Source of the DNA: Brochothrix thermosphacta DSM 20171 = FSL F6-1036
Lineage (GTDB): Bacteria; Bacillota; Bacilli; Lactobacillales; Listeriaceae
Direction of reading: 5' to 3'
Assembly (NCBI RefSeq): GCF_036884295.1
Contig: NZ_CP145608.1
Coordinates: forward strand, 2,290,285-2,314,284
DNA: 24,000 bases
Below the pieces are notes generated by a model, which saw only the letters and a list, made by a program, of their open reading frames with translations, had not been told where the DNA came from and ran no database searches. Both the position numbers and the translations under genes were made by a program. The first letter of the stretch is position 1. Each line of letters opens with the position of its first letter. Shown in pieces: positions 9,036 through 21,768 of this stretch.

Positions 9036-10331
9036 TTACGAGTTAACGGAGTTCACTTTATGCTCTTTTGTTTTTGGTCGCATGTTGAAAACAATGTTCA
9101 GTATAATTGCACATACACTTCCTGCAACAATGCCGTTGCTAGTAAAGAGTTGTACAAATTTAGGCAATACCGCGAATAACTCGGGTACTGTTGTTACGCC
9201 TAATCCTAGACCAACGGAACAAGCAATGATTAACAAGTTTTCTTGTGAAGCGAAATCAACACTGCCTAACATTTTAATACCTTGTGCGACAACCATTCCA
9301 AACATCGCTACCATTGCCCCACCTAAAACTGGTGTGGGAATGGTTGTTGTAATAGCTCCAATTTTAGGAATTAAACCTAAGATTACTAAAAACGAAGCGG
9401 CTACATAAATAACATTTTTCGTTTTCACTCCTGATAACTGGACTAAACCGACGTTTTGCGAATATGCTGTGTAAGGGAATGTATTAAAAATCCCACCTAA
9501 TATAATGGCTAAACCTTCTGAACGATAGCCGCGTGATAAATCTTTGGTCGTTAGCTTTTGTTTTGTGATATCACTGAGTGCGAAATAAACACCGGTTGAC
9601 TCCACCATGCTGACTAATGAAATAATTATCATCGTCAATATCGCTGATAAATTGAATGTGGGCGCTCCAAAAAAGAACGGTGTTGGCACATGTACCCAAG
9701 CCGCTTCAGAAACGGATTGAAATGAAATACCGCGGTAGAAATAAGCAAACAAGCTCCCTGCTAAAATCCCTACTAATACAGCAATTGATCGTAGAAAACC
9801 TGAACCAAAACGATACGTTAGAATAATAACAATCAGCGTTCCAAATCCTAAACTCAGATTAAAAATAGATCCAAAATCTTTACTGCCTTGTCCACCAGCA
9901 AGGTTATTGATTGCTACTGGAATGAGTGTTAAGCCAATAACTGTAACAACGGATCCCGTAACAACCGGAGGAAAGAAACGGACAACTTTAGAAAAAACGG
10001 GGGCGATTAATAATACAAATAATCCTGAAACAATAATAGCACCATAGATAGCACCTATTCCGATATCCTGTCCAATTAATACAATCGGGGCAATCGCTTG
10101 TACTGCACATCCCAAAACAACGGGTAAGCCGATTCCCATAAAACGTCCCACGCGTAATTGCAAGAAGGTTGCAATCCCACACATGAAAATATCAATCGAT
10201 ACTAAATAAGTCGTTTGCATCACTGTAAAATTCAATTGATTTGCAATTAGCAAAGGTACAATCACAGCACCTGCATACATCGCGAGTACGTGCTGAAAAC
10301 CCAATGCCACTATCTTCCCTTTTCCAAACAT
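9036..10331 (-). CDS. pbuX: Xanthine/uracil (NCS2/NAT family) permease, PbuX-like
   Basis: 431 aa, polytopic. The N-terminus …GFQHVLAMYAGAVIVPLLIA and the sequence GGIFNTFPYTAYSQNVGLV are typical of NCS2 xanthine permeases. The gene sits behind a guanine-class riboswitch. GAGAGGAG lies upstream of the ATG. Confidence 0.9.
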   Translation of the reverse strand: MFGKGKIVALGFQHVLAMYAGAVIVPLLIANQLNFTVMQTTYLVSIDIFMCGIATFLQLRVGRFMGIGLPVVLGCAVQAIAPIVLIGQDIGIGAIYGAIIVSGLFVLLIAPVFSKVVRFFPPVVTGSVVTVIGLTLIPVAINNLAGGQGSKDFGSIFNLSLGFGTLIVIILTYRFGSGFLRSIAVLVGILAGSLFAYFYRGISFQSVSEAAWVHVPTPFFFGAPTFNLSAILTMIIISLVSMVESTGVYFALSDITKQKLTTKDLSRGYRSEGLAIILGGIFNTFPYTAYSQNVGLVQLSGVKTKNVIYVAASFLVILGLIPKIGAITTTIPTPVLGGAMVAMFGMVVAQGIKMLGSVDFASQENLLIIACSVGLGLGVTTVPELFAVLPKFVQLFTSNGIVAGSVCAIILNIVFNMRPKTKEHKVNSVNS

Positions 10332-10396: not shown

Positions 10397-10448
10397 AGCT
10401 AAAAAACATCAAAAGAGTCGACTCTTTTAAATATTTTGGCTAAAATCT

Positions 10449-10519
10449 CACTCATAGTCCAACTATTTACGGCAGTTGGGTAGAAACGCGTCATCCATAT
10501 TATGACTATTATATAAGTG
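10449..10519 (-). promoter_or_regulatory. Purine riboswitch aptamer, guanine/xanthine class
   Basis: The minus strand reads CACTTATATAATAGTCATAATATGGATGACGCGTTTCTACCCAACTGCCGTAAATAGTTGGACTATGAGTG. It has the conserved cores UAUAAU, AUAUGG, GUUUCUACC and CCGUAAAU. P1 is CACTTAT/ATGAGTG and P3 is CCAACT/AGTTGG. The specificity position reads GACUAUG (C), as in the guanine class, rather than GAUUAUG as in the adenine class. Confidence 0.9.
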
Positions 10520-10577
10520 TTTTTATCTGGTTGATAAGAAACAACCAACTGAAGGGTTCTTATCTTGTATTTCACTA

Positions 10578-10606
10578 ATTTTAGCGGTTTTTCAAGTAAA
10601 GGTCAA
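10578..10606 (-). promoter_or_regulatory. SigA-type promoter of the riboswitch-pbuX transcript
   Basis: The minus strand has TTGACC, a 17 nt spacer, then TAAAAT. A 5'-proximal hairpin, GATAAGAA…TTCTTATC (10533-10564), lies between the promoter and the aptamer. Confidence 0.6.
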
Positions 10607-10651
10607 TAGTTTATTTGGTTTTTAGAGAATATTTTGTCTTATATTAGACAG

Positions 10652-10664
10652 AATGTTCGGTTTT
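10652..10664 (-). promoter_or_regulatory. PurBox (PurR operator half-site)
   Basis: The minus strand reads AAAACCGAACATT, which fits the Bacillus PurBox consensus AWWWCCGAACWWT at all 13 positions. A degenerate inverted copy (AATATTCTCTAAA) lies about 18 nt downstream. The palindrome TGTCT-TATATT-AGACA (10635-10650) sits between them. Confidence 0.55.
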
Positions 10665-10707
10665 ATGTCTATTTCAACTTGATGATAGATACTATCGTTC
10701 CCTTTTC

Positions 10708-10757
10708 AAAAAAACAATCTTCCTACTGACGAAAAAGCTCGCAGTAAAAAGATTGTT
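10708..10757 (-). terminator. Rho-independent terminator after the dehydrogenase gene
   Basis: On the minus strand the outer arms are AACAATCTT and AAGATTGTT, enclosing an inner stem TACTGCGA/TCGTCAGTA and followed by TTTTTTT. Confidence 0.7.
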
Positions 10758-10819
10758 ATTAGGAGTGCTTTCTATTTCAAAAATAGGCTAACCCTTATCA
10801 TTAAAATAGTTATAAGCGC

Positions 10820-11869
10820 TTATTTTTCGCCGCTTAACTCAACCAAAATTTTAGCTTGTGTTTTATCAGTTGTTAATGCTTCAAATCCTTTAGCAACAAT
10901 ATCATCTAAGACGATTTTAGAAGTTACAATTCCTTGAGGTTTTAGTTGGCCTGTCCCCATCAAATCAACTGTTTGTTGGAAAGTTGTTGGTGTATAAGCT
11001 ATTGTTGATGTTAACTTAACACCTGTATTTGTAAGATGAATCGGGTTCCATTCAATTGGACGCGCAAAAATTGAGACGATAACCACGGTTCCACGAGCAC
11101 GCGTTGCATCAATCGATGCTTTGAAGGTTGGTGCAACACCAGCGACTTCAAACGTTACGTCAACTCCACCAGGAACGATATCGCGCACCGCCTTAACACC
11201 ATCAACTTCACCAGAGTTAACGGCATGCGTTGCACCTAACTCCAATGCTTTTTCTAAACGATTTGCTGAGAGATCAAGCACGATGATTTTACTTGCTCCT
11301 GCAGCTTTTGCAGCAATAATCGTTAATAAACCAATTGGACCTGCACCAAAAACAGCCACTGTATCGCCAAATAACATTTCACTTTCTTTCACGGCTTGTA
11401 CAGCAACAGCCATTGGTTCCACAAGTGCACCATCTTGAAGTGACAGTGATTCTGGTAATTTATACACTTGTTTTTCAGGAGCGTTTGCAAACTTCGTAAA
11501 ACCACCGTCTCCATGTAATCCGATGAAACTAAAACCATCGTATGTATCTAATGCTTCTGGTAAGTTGCCGTGTGTTAATGTTGGATTAATCGCTACACGA
11601 TCCCCTACTTTATATTTTGTTACTTCACTACCGATTTCTTCAATCACACCAGCGAATTCATGCCCCATAATTAACGGTGCCACTTCTCCTGTTAACTCGT
11701 CTTCCTTGTCAACTGGAATAAATACTGGTCCTTCTTGATATTCATGTAAATCACTTCCACAAATCCCTGCCCAAGCGACACGTACTTTCACTTCATCAGC
11801 TTTCATTGGTTTTAAATCCCTGTCTTCAATACGCAAATCTTTTTCTCCATACCATACAGCTGCTTTCAT
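10820..11869 (-). CDS. bdhA: Zn-dependent medium-chain dehydrogenase, (R,R)-2,3-butanediol/acetoin dehydrogenase-like
   Basis: 349 aa. The catalytic Zn motif is GICGSDLHEY…GHEF and the Rossmann motif is VFGAGPIGLL. The protein is collinear along its length with my recollection of B. subtilis BdhA/YdjL (…VKILV at the C-terminus). GGGGG lies 10 nt upstream of the ATG. Confidence 0.85.
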   Translation of the reverse strand: MKAAVWYGEKDLRIEDRDLKPMKADEVKVRVAWAGICGSDLHEYQEGPVFIPVDKEDELTGEVAPLIMGHEFAGVIEEIGSEVTKYKVGDRVAINPTLTHGNLPEALDTYDGFSFIGLHGDGGFTKFANAPEKQVYKLPESLSLQDGALVEPMAVAVQAVKESEMLFGDTVAVFGAGPIGLLTIIAAKAAGASKIIVLDLSANRLEKALELGATHAVNSGEVDGVKAVRDIVPGGVDVTFEVAGVAPTFKASIDATRARGTVVIVSIFARPIEWNPIHLTNTGVKLTSTIAYTPTTFQQTVDLMGTGQLKPQGIVTSKIVLDDIVAKGFEALTTDKTQAKILVELSGEK

Positions 11870-16147: not shown

Positions 16148-16176
16148 ATTTTATACATCCACTTTTTTTTTGTCAA
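16148..16176 (-). promoter_or_regulatory. Candidate SigA promoter of the second antiterminator-PTS operon
   Basis: The minus strand has TTGACA, a 17 nt spacer, then TAAAAT. I found no RAT in this leader. Confidence 0.55.
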
Positions 16177-16244
16177 TTTTTTATTACGCGTGACAAAACG
16201 AAACAGGTTACAACGCTATACCTGTCTCATTATTATTTTCCCAC

Positions 16245-16337
16245 AAAAAAAGAGAATACTAAAGGGGATTAGTATTCTCTAGGGAATAAGGGATATTTTT
16301 TAAAGGGATAATTATTATAGGGAAATAATTATATTCT
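16245..16337 (-). ncRNA. Candidate C-rich (UCCC-motif) small RNA, sibling copy A, LhrC-like architecture
   Basis: The minus strand has its own promoter: TTGGAA (16372-16367), 17 nt, TATAGT (16349-16344). The transcript is about 93 nt: …AUAAUUAU-UUCCCUAUA-AUAAUUAU-CCCUUUAAAAAAUAUCCCUUAUUCCCU-AGAGAAUACU-AAUCCCCUUU-AGUAUUCUCU-UUUUUUU. This gives an A/U hairpin exposing UCCC, a single-stranded tract with three more UCCC motifs, and a perfect 10 bp terminator whose loop is also C-rich. There is no ORF. The transcript ends are estimates. Confidence 0.6.
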
Positions 16338-16399
16338 AAGTATACTATATTTTTTGTTATATATTATTCCAAAAAAGGTAATCTAGGGCGCACTTTTTG

Positions 16400-16414
16400 A
16401 AAAAAAAAAAAAAA
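16400..16414. repeat. A15 homopolymer tract (T15 on the minus strand)
   Basis: There are fifteen consecutive A residues, preceded by TTTTTG. They lie about 30 nt upstream of the -35 box of sRNA copy A. Confidence 0.95.
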
Positions 16415-16753
16415 CGTGCTGCACTATTTTATTTCAACGAGTGCATGAACACTTTATATGCTTATTTATCTCGGCTCTATAATTTATGCTGTTGATGATT
16501 CTTAGTGAAAAATAGCAATAAAATTAAATCGCATAAAAAATTTATAAGCGATGAATTAAAATTATCAGCAACCTCCCCTAACTGAAATACGACTTCCAAA
16601 ATCAGATGAATCGATAGAATAGTAACTATTAGAAAGATATTAAAAAATGGAGTAGTACTCTCAAGATATAAAAAAATGGATTGGTACTCGCTTTCGCTCC
16701 GTCCCATACTGGCCTTGTATGCTCATGTCTTCGCAACAATGTCAGCACCCATA

Positions 16754-16790
16754 CTGTTCTCGTAAGCGAATAAATTCGCTACGAGAACAG
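16754..16790. repeat. Long near-perfect inverted repeat (hairpin) with no U-tract
   Basis: CTGTTCTCGTAAGCGAA-TAAA-TTCGCTACGAGAACAG forms about 16 bp with one bulge. It directly abuts the T-run of the sRNA copy B terminator. Confidence 0.85.
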
Positions 16791-16791
16791 T

Positions 16792-16885
16792 AAAAAAGAG
16801 AGAATGGCTAAAGGGGATTAGCATTCTCTCAGAAATAAGGGATATTTTTTAAGGGATAATTATTATAGGGAAATAATTATATACT
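16792..16885 (-). ncRNA. Candidate C-rich (UCCC-motif) small RNA, sibling copy B
   Basis: A direct repeat of about 110 bp links copy A (16245-16356) with 16792-16904. The promoter is TTGAAA (16920-16915), 17 nt, TATAGT (16897-16892). The hairpin loop UUCCCU and the terminator loop AAUCCCCUUU are the same as in copy A. The terminator stem differs by a compensatory A-U to G-C change (GAGAGAAUGCU/AGCCAUUCUCUC). One internal UCCC is lost (UUUCUGAG). No terminator separates it from the upstream yjdM gene. Confidence 0.6.
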
Positions 16886-17007
16886 AAGTATACTATATTT
16901 TTTCGCGTCCGTATTTTCAATAATAGTCTTTTAAGAAGCAATTTTTGAAAATATTTAATGATCAGCTACTAAAATAACATCCCTTATAAAATCCTATTAA
17001 ATTATCG

Positions 17008-17349
17008 TTAGTTTTTCTTAACGAACTCTGATTTTAACTTCATTGGTCCAAAACCATCAATTTTACAATCAATGTTATGGTCCCCCTCAACGAGACGGAT
17101 ACTTTTAACTTTAGTTCCTAATTTCAAATCAGATTGAGCACCCTTAACTTTAAGATTTTTAATAACAGTCACCGAATCTCCATCAGCTAGTAGGTTGCCA
17201 TTCACATCTTTTACAACCAAGCCTTCTTCAGTTGTTTCAGTTGTCGTTTCATTGTTCCATTCAAACGCACATTCAGGACAAACGAAATTGCCACGATCTT
17301 CATAAGTATATTCTGATTGGCACTCAGGACAGTTTGGTAAATTACTCAT
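17008..17349 (-). CDS. yjdM: Zinc-ribbon protein YjdM/PhnA family
   Basis: 113 aa. The N-terminal CPxC…CPxC ribbon is [21 protein letters not shown]. The C-terminal domain is …[14 protein letters not shown]…[44 protein letters not shown] lies 6 nt upstream of the ATG. Confidence 0.9.
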
Positions 17350-19244: not shown

Positions 19245-20063
19245 CTAACATTCTTTAGTGACCTTCGATTTGTTATTATTTTTAGCATATTGCATAAACT
19301 CGCTAGGCAGTATATGTGTGTATTTTTTAAAGATATCAATAAAGTAGCGATAATTGCTGAATCCGACATCCAATGCAATTGTACTGATTTTATCTTCACC
19401 TTTTTCTAATAATAAGATTGCCTGTGAAATACGATACCGATTGAGATAATCATTAAAAGTGTAGCCCGTAATTGCCTTGAATTTTTGATTAAGATACGTT
19501 TTACTTCTTCCCAGTTCATCAGCAATATCTTGCACGCTGATTTTTTCATCATAACGCTCTTCAATCAAAGCTAATAATGCTCTGATACTTTTTGATGGCT
19601 GTACGGCTGCCTCTGTCTGTTTAAAGACAAATAATTCACGTTCACTTACTTCATGAATCTTTTCTTTAAACGTTTGATATTGACGTTTTAGCAATAGAGA
19701 TTCCTTACAACGGTGGAGTGCCTGTATTAATTCCTCATGATCTAATGGTTTTAAAAGATAGTCTGTCACACCATACTTAATCGCTTGCTTAGCCTTTTCA
19801 AAATCGTTGTAACCTGAAATAATAATCGTCGCAAACACTTGTTTTTCTATTTGGCAACGTTGTAATACTTCAAGACCATTCAACAATGGCATGTTGATAT
19901 CCAATAAAACGATATCTGGTGCCAATGTCTTTATTTGACTAACTGCCATTTCACCATCACTCGCTTCACCAACAATACGACAGTCTATTTTAGCCCAATT
20001 AATACTCATTTTAACACCTTCGCGCATAATATCTTCGTCTTCAATCAGCAACACTTTATACAT
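19245..20063 (-). CDS. Two-component response regulator, receiver plus AraC-type HTH (YesN-like)
   Basis: The receiver domain reads MYKVLLIEDED…DIVLLDINMP…KPL. The C-terminal AraC/XylS HTH reads ISVQDIADELGRSKTYLNQKFK…GFSNYRYFIDIFKK. I call the ATG at 20061-20063, which overlaps the kinase stop as ATGTATAA. The 17-codon extension in the track has no receiver homology. Confidence 0.88.
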   Translation of the reverse strand: MYKVLLIEDEDIMREGVKMSINWAKIDCRIVGEASDGEMAVSQIKTLAPDIVLLDINMPLLNGLEVLQRCQIEKQVFATIIISGYNDFEKAKQAIKYGVTDYLLKPLDHEELIQALHRCKESLLLKRQYQTFKEKIHEVSERELFVFKQTEAAVQPSKSIRALLALIEERYDEKISVQDIADELGRSKTYLNQKFKAITGYTFNDYLNRYRISQAILLLEKGEDKISTIALDVGFSNYRYFIDIFKKYTHILPSEFMQYAKNNNKSKVTKEC

Positions 20064-21750
20064 GCTTTTCACCCTTTGCGATTGGCAATACGAGTCGAAC
20101 ACTAGTCCCTTCACCTAATTGGGATTGTATCGTTAATCCATAGTTTTCACCGTGAAGTAAGACTATTTTACGATGGGTATTATACACTCCGATTCGATCG
20201 CCATTATTTAGTGGTTCATGTAACGTTTCAGTGATTTCACGTAGCTTTTCAGGTGCAATCCCATGGCCATTATCGACAACAAGTAAATGTAATTCCTCAC
20301 CTACTTGCTCAACCGTAATCGTAATCATCAATTGAAGTTGCTTTTCATAACCGTATTTTATAGCATTTTCAACTAACGGTTGTAATAATAGTTTTGGAAT
20401 TTCAATATCATGCAAATCGTCTGGAAGATTTACTTTATAGTGTAAACGATCATTATAGCGGTAGGCGTGTAATTTCAAATAATCTGCGATGTAATCCATA
20501 TCTTTTTTCAATGTCGCATGCTGTTCACCTTGATTAATACTATATCGTAAAATGCGTGACAAAGTCAGAATAATACGCTGCGCTTTTTCTTCATCTACTC
20601 TCATAGTATAACGAATCGTTTCAAGCATGTTAAAAAGAAAATGGGGATTGAATTGACTTTGAAGAAATCTAATTTCATCTCGTTGCAAAATATATGTGAG
20701 TTCCTGGTTGCGTAATAACAATAAATCAAGGCTTTTCAACATCTCGTTGTAACGATGCGCTAACTTTTCAAATTCATCACCTGTAGGTATTTCTACATAA
20801 TTATTCAATTCACCACTTTTCAAATGATCCAGCGCATTCATCATTGTATTGAGCGCCATCGAGTGTTGGACTGACATTCTTCTAGATAAATAATGGAGCA
20901 AAATAAATAGTACGCCACTTGAAATTGTGGTAAACAGTACATAAAAAATAAATAACTCCTGATAATTAGGGCTAGCAATTAAGGAATACACCCGAAGCGG
21001 ATAGGCCATCGCAACTTGTTCATTCATATAATAGGCTTTATTTCCCAGTTGAACGCGTTGTCCGTGTTCTCGTTTATACGTGAATTTCCCCATTAAACCT
21101 TTGACACTATTACTGTTTGAGACAATCACACGATCATATTTATCTGTTACAACTAACACATCCGCTTTGTTGCCAAAAAACATGCGTTGAAAATCCTCAT
21201 CTTTCAATCGTACAACGAGATAACCAATAATTTCACCTTGATCTTTTACTGCTTGTGAAAGTAATAACACGGTCTTTTTATTGTGTGCTAAATTTTTTGT
21301 TTCCGCTTCAATTATCAATTGATCAGAGCGAGACCATCGCTTCAGTCGATAACTAGATATATCTAAGGACGTGCTATCTTCTAACATGGCTGAAGATAAA
21401 CCTTGTCCTTGAGAATCAACTAATTGAAAAACACTTTGAACTTGTTGTTGGCTATTGAACGCATAAAAAGCGGCAAAAACCTTGTTGCTGTGCTGCTTAT
21501 ATTTCAGATAATTGATAACTGCTTGATTTTTAGCTAATTCATCAAACCCAGTTTCATAATTCCGGAGCACTTTACTAATATCTGCTACTGTTGTTTCACC
21601 CACTTTTTCAGCATCATGACTTACTTTCCAAGCAGAGAAGCTAAAAAGTCCAATGCCAAAAACAATAAACAAAAAGATAATCGGGATCAGTGTATATTTT
21701 AAAAATAGTACACGTGTCTGTTCTTTAAAATTACGTACCTTTTTCGACAT
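20056..21750 (-). CDS. Sensor histidine kinase, YesM/LytS-type (His_kinase plus HATPase_c) with a large extracytoplasmic domain
   Basis: There are two TM segments (about aa 20-42 and 265-290) bracketing a sensor domain of about 220 aa. A HAMP-like linker follows, then the H-box LQSQFNPHFLFNMLE and ATPase motifs VENAIKYG and DNGHGI. I call the ATG at 21748-21750, with AGGGG 8 nt upstream. The first M in the track is GTG. Confidence 0.88.
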   Translation of the reverse strand: MSKKVRNFKEQTRVLFLKYTLIPIIFLFIVFGIGLFSFSAWKVSHDAEKVGETTVADISKVLRNYETGFDELAKNQAVINYLKYKQHSNKVFAAFYAFNSQQQVQSVFQLVDSQGQGLSSAMLEDSTSLDISSYRLKRWSRSDQLIIEAETKNLAHNKKTVLLLSQAVKDQGEIIGYLVVRLKDEDFQRMFFGNKADVLVVTDKYDRVIVSNSNSVKGLMGKFTYKREHGQRVQLGNKAYYMNEQVAMAYPLRVYSLIASPNYQELFIFYVLFTTISSGVLFILLHYLSRRMSVQHSMALNTMMNALDHLKSGELNNYVEIPTGDEFEKLAHRYNEMLKSLDLLLLRNQELTYILQRDEIRFLQSQFNPHFLFNMLETIRYTMRVDEEKAQRIILTLSRILRYSINQGEQHATLKKDMDYIADYLKLHAYRYNDRLHYKVNLPDDLHDIEIPKLLLQPLVENAIKYGYEKQLQLMITITVEQVGEELHLLVVDNGHGIAPEKLREITETLHEPLNNGDRIGVYNTHRKIVLLHGENYGLTIQSQLGEGTSVRLVLPIAKGEKHV

Positions 21751-21768
21751 CACTGATTCCCCTTTAAA

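Follow-up and report, generated by a model that had tools for sequence, protein, structure and literature searches.

We have analysed a 24,000-nt stretch of DNA from Brochothrix thermosphacta (Listeriaceae), which we refer to as "the window" and whose positions serve as coordinates throughout, and have found on its minus strand two closely similar intergenic elements, "copy A" and "copy B", which are probably genes in their own right that encode a pair of trans-acting small regulatory RNAs (sRNAs), siblings of about 90 nt whose UCCC seeds would pair with the Shine-Dalgarno regions of mRNAs. Each predicted RNA consists of a stem-loop, called "stem-loop A", a linker and an intrinsic terminator, and the bit scores in the list below refer to R1, a covariance model that was built here from the Brochothrix RNAs. 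The parts of the two RNAs are located as follows:

16245..16338, minus strand: sRNA gene copy A, from the RNA body to the end of the U-run (R1, 105.3 bits; fold; five UCCC motifs predicted to be unpaired)
16308..16332, minus strand: stem-loop A of copy A, 9-bp A/U stem with the loop UCCCUAU at 16317-16323 (minimum free energy, centroid and RNAalifold structures)
16281..16307, minus strand: G-free single-stranded linker of copy A with three UCCC motifs (probability of being unpaired, P(unpaired), 0.78-1.00)
16244..16280, minus strand: intrinsic terminator of copy A, 12-bp stem, loop UCCCCU and U-run (terminator scan, 16280..16251; compensatory pairs)
16793..16886, minus strand: sRNA gene copy B (R1, 110.1 bits; fold; four UCCC motifs)
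16856..16880, minus strand: stem-loop A of copy B, identical to that of copy A (fold and pairwise alignment)
16792..16830, minus strand: intrinsic terminator of copy B, stem of 13 bp containing one bulged C, loop UCCCCU and U-run (fold)

The two genes lie in a direct repeat (16243-16375 and 16791-16923, approximately 91-94% identical), which the original prediction had described as a unit of about 110 bp and which has been confirmed both by the repeat search, with 97% identity between 16297-16355 and 16845-16903 and 90% between 16259-16306 and 16808-16855, and by blastn, where copy A and copy B are 93.8% identical over 97 nt. A weaker similarity between the two copies continues for about 70 nt further upstream in the pairwise alignment, through the promoter and up to a common TCAAAAA box.

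Both RNAs, taken at about 95 nt, fold into the predicted succession of A/U hairpin, unpaired linker and terminator, and their folds are much more stable than those of shuffled sequences (z = -5.6 for copy A and -6.2 for copy B), with none of the 200 shuffles being as good. The A/U hairpin of the original prediction is thus found, with a different loop: it comprises seven nucleotides, UCCCUAU, rather than the UUCCCU that had been proposed. The strong Rho-independent terminators that had been read from the sequence are recovered by the terminator scan for copy A and by the fold for copy B, while the proposed RNA length of about 93 nt falls inside the predicted range of approximately 85-95 nt and varies with the start site that is assumed. 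As for coding potential, the two RNAs together contain a single AUG or GUG, an AUG to which an A-to-G change in the terminator stem of copy B has given rise; the 33-aa frame that opens at this AUG is absent from copy A, and a small open reading frame (ORF) has been rejected as a candidate.

The UCCC motifs are located at loop A, directly 3' of hairpin A, in the G-free linker and at the terminator loop: as had been claimed, loop A and the terminator loop have a single motif each in both RNAs, to which the linker adds three (copy A) or two (copy B). Across the four distinct copies that are known from B. thermosphacta and Brochothrix campestris, all of which have two or three linker motifs, the partition function predicts the UCCC motifs to be exposed (P(unpaired) 0.77-1.00, and 0.78-1.00 at loop A), with the exception of the stem-adjacent motif of B. 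campestris copy 1 (0.30); the terminator loop, AAUCCCCUUU, is invariant across all copies, with a P(unpaired) of 1.00. All UCCC motifs are invariant except for the third motif of the linker, which is dispensable: in one strain of B. thermosphacta, this motif of copy A has changed to UCUC, matching its absence from copy B. The composition of the RNAs is strongly biased, with 19-22 C against 4-9 G per RNA, and the G residues fall only within the terminator stems or at the very 5' end, to which the B. campestris copies add one in stem A and one in the linker.

Within each RNA, Tandem Repeats Finder reports an internal periodicity of 14-15 nt (16288-16331 and 16836-16879; about three copies with 83% matches), and the RNA body can be read as three or four modules, each being the palindromic AUAAUUAU followed by UCCC, with stem-loop A formed by two adjacent modules that pair with each other. 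Because of this periodicity, the sequence suggests that the RNA arose by the tandem amplification of a short module.

The promoter elements of the two copies are located as follows:

16339..16372, minus strand: core promoter of copy A, -35 TTGGAA (16372-16367), -10 TATAGT (16349-16344), overlapping TATACT (16344-16339) (promoter scan, 9/12 matches)
16394..16400, minus strand: upstream box TCAAAAA of copy A, 28 bp upstream of the -35 element (promoter alignment)
16887..16920, minus strand: core promoter of copy B, -35 TTGAAA (16920-16915), -10 TATAGT (16897-16892), overlapping TATACT (16892-16887) (promoter scan, 10/12 matches)
16942..16948, minus strand: upstream box TCAAAAA of copy B (promoter alignment)

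The SigA promoter TTGnAA-17-TATAGT that had been proposed is found by the scan for both copies, while its -10 element has become ambiguous, because the TATAGT at 17 nt from the -35 element occurs in B. thermosphacta only (the other lineages have GATAGT, CATAGT or nothing), and the invariant hexamer, TATACT, is present in all lineages, yet lies 21-22 nt from TTGNNA. The alignment of six promoters (A3) has three elements that are invariant in 6/6: the TCAAAAA box, the TTG of the -35 element, which follows the box at a distance of exactly 28 bp, and GTATACT at the -10 position; the box and the TTTTTTG(A) at the -35 element form an inverted repeat. From these elements, an activator-dependent promoter appears plausible. 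The sharing of the same elements by all copies (TCAAAAA about 28 bp upstream, GTATACT) suggests a single common transcription factor for all of them, which could, by analogy, be an envelope-stress regulator of the two-component type, such as LisR. Counted from the start site that TATAGT would imply, the TCAAAAA box occupies about -57 to -63, and the LisR-responsive residues of lhrC5 in Listeria are located at -55 to -75 (PMC4132741), a parallel of position only. A SigB or extracytoplasmic function (ECF) sigma factor promoter has been rejected by visual inspection against consensus motifs. A homopolymer of 15 T residues on the minus strand (16400-16414) directly adjoins the copy A TCAAAAA box on its upstream side, with a length of 13-15 among strains.

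Read along the minus strand, the locus comprises yjdM, copy B, about 450 bp of spacer, copy A, the bglG promoter, bglG and a phosphotransferase system (PTS) gene, in this order, and the conservation of the sRNAs has been followed at this site. The YjdM and BglG proteins encoded here share 99-100% identity with proteins assigned to B. thermosphacta. Both copies are present in 10/10 other B. thermosphacta strains; in B. campestris DSM 4712, two tandem copies, about 170 bp apart, occur at the same site downstream of yjdM; and a third Brochothrix-like lineage (83% identity in YjdM) carries at least one copy, which is truncated by the end of the contig. Terminators are predicted for the B. campestris copies, a promoter at the level of the scan for copy 1 (Bc1) only, and a promoter is also predicted for the copy of the third lineage; the check for siblings in relatives has borne out the original prediction, with copies, promoters and terminators being kept across Brochothrix species and the flanks not.

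Between species, the sRNAs are 80-85% identical, as compared with 78% for yjdM DNA, 53% for the third codon positions of yjdM, 73% for bglG DNA and 41-43% for the flanking intergenic DNA; an identity above that of the neighbouring coding and intergenic DNA argues that the sRNAs are under purifying selection. The paralogues within a species, at 87-91% identity, are more alike than the orthologues between species, which suggests concerted evolution or independent duplications. The variation among strains is limited to a few positions: besides the UCUC variant, the bulged C of the copy B terminator is strain-specific, being missing in 5/10 other strains, and the top of stem A is weakened in one strain. 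YjdM is conserved across phyla, too much so for lineages to be traced by it; of four near relatives that were followed up, two are on Brochothrix-like contigs that end in the first sRNA copy and two are at unrelated loci.

The conserved structure has been examined in an alignment (A2) of eight distinct sequences, four of which are independent and the rest strain variants. RNAalifold returns the same two helices from this alignment unprompted, and 96.6% of the cells in paired columns can pair, as compared with 41-53% when the partners are slid. Compensatory double changes occur at three pairs, all of them in the terminator, for example A-U to G-C in 4/8 sequences and U-A to C-G in 1/8; the A-U to G-C exchange between the two terminator stems that had been noticed originally is real and corresponds to alignment columns 66/82. 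Stem A is nearly invariant, with one G-U pair and one break. Covariation in the terminator alone cannot tell an sRNA from a plain terminator, and the invariance of the unpaired segments UUUCCCUA, UAUCCCU, AUAUCCCUUAU and CUAAUCCCCUUUAG is the stronger argument for conserved RNAs.

Several points weigh against the two copies being sRNA genes of this kind. The transcription of both copies is inferred from their sequence. There is ambiguity in the -10 element, and no canonical pair of -35 and -10 elements in the second B. campestris copy. The covariation derives from four independent sequences plus strain variants, and every compensatory change is in the terminator. The sRNA copies match no Rfam family at its threshold, and RNAduplex, run against 18 translation-initiation regions of the window, has returned just long, implausible A/U duplexes.

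Among the rival explanations, the one that survives best, and that we nevertheless consider improbable, is that of a duplicated intergenic element, similar to a repetitive extragenic palindrome (REP) or a miniature inverted-repeat transposable element (MITE), made up of a terminator and AT-rich filler with chance promoter hexamers and no RNA function. Promoter-like sites are indeed about as frequent in the region as in shuffled sequence (8 found, 7.2 expected), the region between the copies is unstable and rich in variable tandem repeats, and short-read assemblies break at the copies, as seen from four independent short-read (Logan) contigs that start or end inside an sRNA copy (L131 and L132 end, L136 and L137 start). 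A dispersed element is, however, at odds with a locus that has only two copies and is syntenic in two species, and with the R1 search of about 120 kb of Brochothrix sequence, which has turned up no others. The conservation above that of neighbouring coding DNA and the invariance of the exposed C motifs, TCAAAAA, TTG and GTATACT also speak against it.

The searches of sequence collections point in the same direction: the repeat unit has no match in phages, plasmids, viral contigs or the Joint Genome Institute (JGI) metagenomes that were searched, which speaks against a mobile element. The BLAST searches of the phage and plasmid collections have given no match, the scan of viral contigs and the first metagenome scan have given nothing, and the 20 loci of the second metagenome scan are all chance matches (at most 26 bits with R1). 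A scan of a genome collection with the loose pattern TTTCCCT..ATCCCTT..ATCCCCTT has produced at least 120 rows, almost all of them chance matches; B. campestris is among the matches listed, and the B. thermosphacta representative is not among the matches listed.

The variable spacer between the copies deserves a description of its own. It is located at 16400-16790 (approximately 10560-10900 in the sequences L001-L010) and contains strain-variable tandem repeats, namely a 45-bp unit (TACGAGAACAGTATGGGTGCTGACATTGTTGCGAAGACATGAG..) that occurs 1-4 times and a 29-bp unit (GAGAGTACCAATCCATTT..ATATCTT) that occurs 2-4 times, due to which the intergenic length ranges from 928 to 1119 bp among 11 B. 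thermosphacta sequences; both units are absent from B. campestris, and their number could serve for strain typing. A perfect hairpin of 37 nt, CUGUUCUCGUAGCGAAUUUAUUCGCUUACGAGAACAG (16754-16790, minus strand), with a stem of about 16 bp and without a U-run, directly follows the copy B terminator and overlaps the first 45-bp unit.

The second rival explanation, which we rank marginally below the intergenic element and likewise regard as improbable, takes the copies as cis elements of their neighbours, with copy B being the 3' untranslated region (3'UTR) and terminator of yjdM, copy A an insulating terminator in front of the bglG-PTS operon, and the C-rich loops incidental. The neighbouring features are the following:

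17349-17008, minus strand: yjdM, with its stop at 17008
16176..16148, minus strand: bglG promoter TTGACA-17-TAAAAT, strong (promoter scan)
16076-15258, minus strand: BglG-type antiterminator (ORF)
15055-13187, minus strand: beta-glucoside PTS EIIBCA gene (ORF)

This arrangement would suit the cis explanation in B. thermosphacta, where the terminator scan has found no other such signal from the yjdM stop (17008) as far as copy B, whose own terminator probably also ends yjdM read-through transcripts, and where about 70 bp lie between the end of copy A and the strong bglG promoter downstream. The cis explanation does not fit the other lineages. In the third lineage, a terminator of yjdM itself is predicted upstream of the sRNA, and B. 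campestris yjdM also has its own terminator by our reading of the sequence, at a place where the terminator scan has reported none; a suggestion of the original prediction, that copy B could be a species derived from the yjdM 3'UTR, fits B. thermosphacta in this respect and does not fit the other lineages. Moreover, two genes are inserted between the pair and bglG in B. campestris, one an ORF of 84 aa and the other a Mga-like regulator of 490 aa with HTH_Mga and PRD_Mga domains (L135, 2946-4800), an insertion that is absent in B. thermosphacta, yet the RNAs are conserved. Lastly, a plain terminator needs no conserved upstream hairpin, no linker and no four invariant UCCC motifs.

A leader of the bglG operon with a ribonucleic antiterminator (RAT) has been tried as a candidate and rejected, given the strong promoter downstream of copy A and a B. 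campestris pair that is not adjacent to bglG. Two further features have been observed next to the copies: a terminator-like hairpin, ACAGGU..ACCUGU followed by UUUCGUUUUGU (16194-16225, minus strand), which lies past the copy A terminator and ahead of the bglG promoter; and, just past the yjdM stop, the 3'UTR sequence AUAAGGGAUGUUAUUUUAG (16969-16987, minus strand), which is complementary to the sRNA linker AAUAUCCCUUAU.. (84% over 19 nt), could be a local pairing site or chance, and is not conserved in B. campestris.

The least probable of the three is a protein sponge, in which the UCCC modules would titrate a protein that binds C-rich RNA, in the manner of CsrB/RsmZ titrating CsrA through GGA motifs: the motifs are regularly spaced and repeated within each RNA, at the period of 14-15 nt, but UCCC is the complement of the G-rich Shine-Dalgarno core in this window, and Bacillota are not known to have a global regulator that binds UCCC. 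Base-pairing is the mode of action of LhrC and RsaE/RoxS, which are the nearest analogues to have been characterised (PMC8079631, PMC4132741).

For the sibling trans-acting sRNAs that we prefer to these explanations, the proposed mechanism would start with a single transcription factor, LisR-like by analogy, driving all copies through the conserved promoter. The C-rich UCCC seeds of the RNAs would then base-pair, in several mRNAs, with Shine-Dalgarno regions rich in G (GGGA or AGGGG), and this pairing would block ribosome loading and often destabilise the target mRNA, as for LhrC1-5, Rli22, Rli33-1 and RsaE/RoxS.

Shine-Dalgarno sequences of the GGGG or GGGA type are found at several genes of the window. 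One such region, UUUAAAGGGGAAUCA (20115-20135, minus strand), upstream of the histidine kinase ORF 20056-21753, would allow 8 contiguous pairs with UCCCCUUU, the seed in the terminator loop of the sRNAs.

We have compared the Brochothrix RNAs with the known families of C-rich sRNAs, foremost with the LhrC family of Listeria, the sister genus of Brochothrix within Listeriaceae. In Listeria, envelope stress or heme induces LhrC1-5 and Rli22 by way of LisRK, Rli33-1 depends on SigB, and the UCCC motifs pair with the ribosome-binding sites of mRNAs for surface proteins (lapB, oppA, tcsA, lmo0484). At gathering thresholds, the sole Rfam match in the whole window is a purine riboswitch aptamer (RF00167, 81.5 bits) at 10435-10536 on the minus strand, upstream of an ORF (9036-10331, minus strand) for a xanthine/uracil permease. 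LhrC, rli22, rli33 and RsaE give no match at E<=10 for either copy of the window. On B. campestris copy 1, the LhrC model (RF00616) aligns over its full length and in register (stem-loop A, post-stem UCCC, linker UCCCUU, terminator and C-rich loop), with 25.6 bits against a gathering threshold of 110 and E = 0.22 over all families; this match concerns one copy only, has disappeared in a narrower search, and may be set beside the 18-26 bits that unrelated metagenome sequences with a common hairpin 20-mer obtain from a different model, R1. The RsaE model (RF01820) gives 15.4 bits on the same copy, against a gathering threshold of 79, and no match in the window. The search with these models that had been proposed has, in this way, brought no match at threshold and one alignment in register.

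The claim of an LhrC-like architecture, made as a claim of architecture and not of membership, has held: copy B has UCCC at the four structural positions of LhrC4, with P(unpaired) values of 1.00/0.77/1.00/1.00, as compared with 1.00/0.76/1.00/1.00 in LhrC4. The global alignment of the four RNAs with an LhrC sequence (PMC4132741 supplement, taken as LhrC4) is marginal (z = 2.4-2.9). Homology to the LhrC family is plausible from these comparisons, which, with a model score below threshold that a narrower search has not reproduced and a marginal alignment, fall short of demonstrating membership.

The likeness to LhrC (LhrC1-5, Rli22 and Rli33-1; RF00616, clan CL00114) extends to several other traits: the host is a member of Listeriaceae; the RNAs are multicopy siblings, partly in tandem, with two per locus in two Brochothrix species; the order of parts is stem-loop A, then a single-stranded segment and lastly the terminator; there is an additional UCCC in the terminator loop, as in the LhrC1-5 subtype; and a conserved promoter element is located at about -55 to -65, in the region of the LisR-responsive element of lhrC5 (PMC4132741). 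The Brochothrix RNAs differ from LhrC in their predicted length (approximately 85-95 nt against 105-121 nt), in being without the 5' leader of about 22 nt, in a stem A that is purely A/U and made of two tandem palindromic modules, in having up to five UCCC motifs, and in their genomic site between yjdM and bglG; no Listeria protein is among the homologues listed for the PTS and BglG proteins of the window.

The other two families are more distant. RsaE/RoxS and the UCCC-motif Rsa sRNAs of Staphylococcus aureus share with the Brochothrix RNAs the unpaired UCCC seeds followed by a terminator, as well as the Shine-Dalgarno pairing mechanism, which is only proposed for the latter; RsaE, unlike these genus-restricted siblings, is single-copy, has another hairpin layout and is conserved across Bacillales. 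The streptococcal csRNAs of the CiaRH system are multiple siblings of about 90-150 nt with C/U-rich anti-Shine-Dalgarno stretches, answer to a single two-component regulator and have additive effects on common targets; their seed is CCUCCU-like, as opposed to UCCC, and they give no Rfam match here. A direct repeat of the CiaR type (TTTAAG-N5-TTTAAG) has not been seen by eye in the Brochothrix sRNA promoters. No paper connecting Brochothrix with either LhrC or small regulatory RNAs has come up in our full-text searches, and the papers that mention both B. thermosphacta and "sRNA" are unrelated, judging by their titles and abstracts.

The Brochothrix RNAs are, by analogy with these families, an apparently genus-restricted sibling pair of the C-rich-seed kind, probably LhrC-like in action, and an incremental addition to a well-known class that involves no new mechanism. 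It is possible, if less than probable, that they are highly diverged true relatives of LhrC and that siblings with multiple UCCC motifs predate the split of Listeria and Brochothrix; the Brochothrix form would then hint at an origin by the amplification of the 14-15-nt module (AUAAUUAU and UCCC), where two adjacent modules fold as stem-loop A and the others stay as exposed seeds. An LhrC-like pair in the sister genus of Listeria offers an outgroup for the origin and diversification of multicopy, multi-seed sRNAs, and the comparison of the two would show whether the link between envelope stress and sRNAs is ancestral to Listeriaceae.

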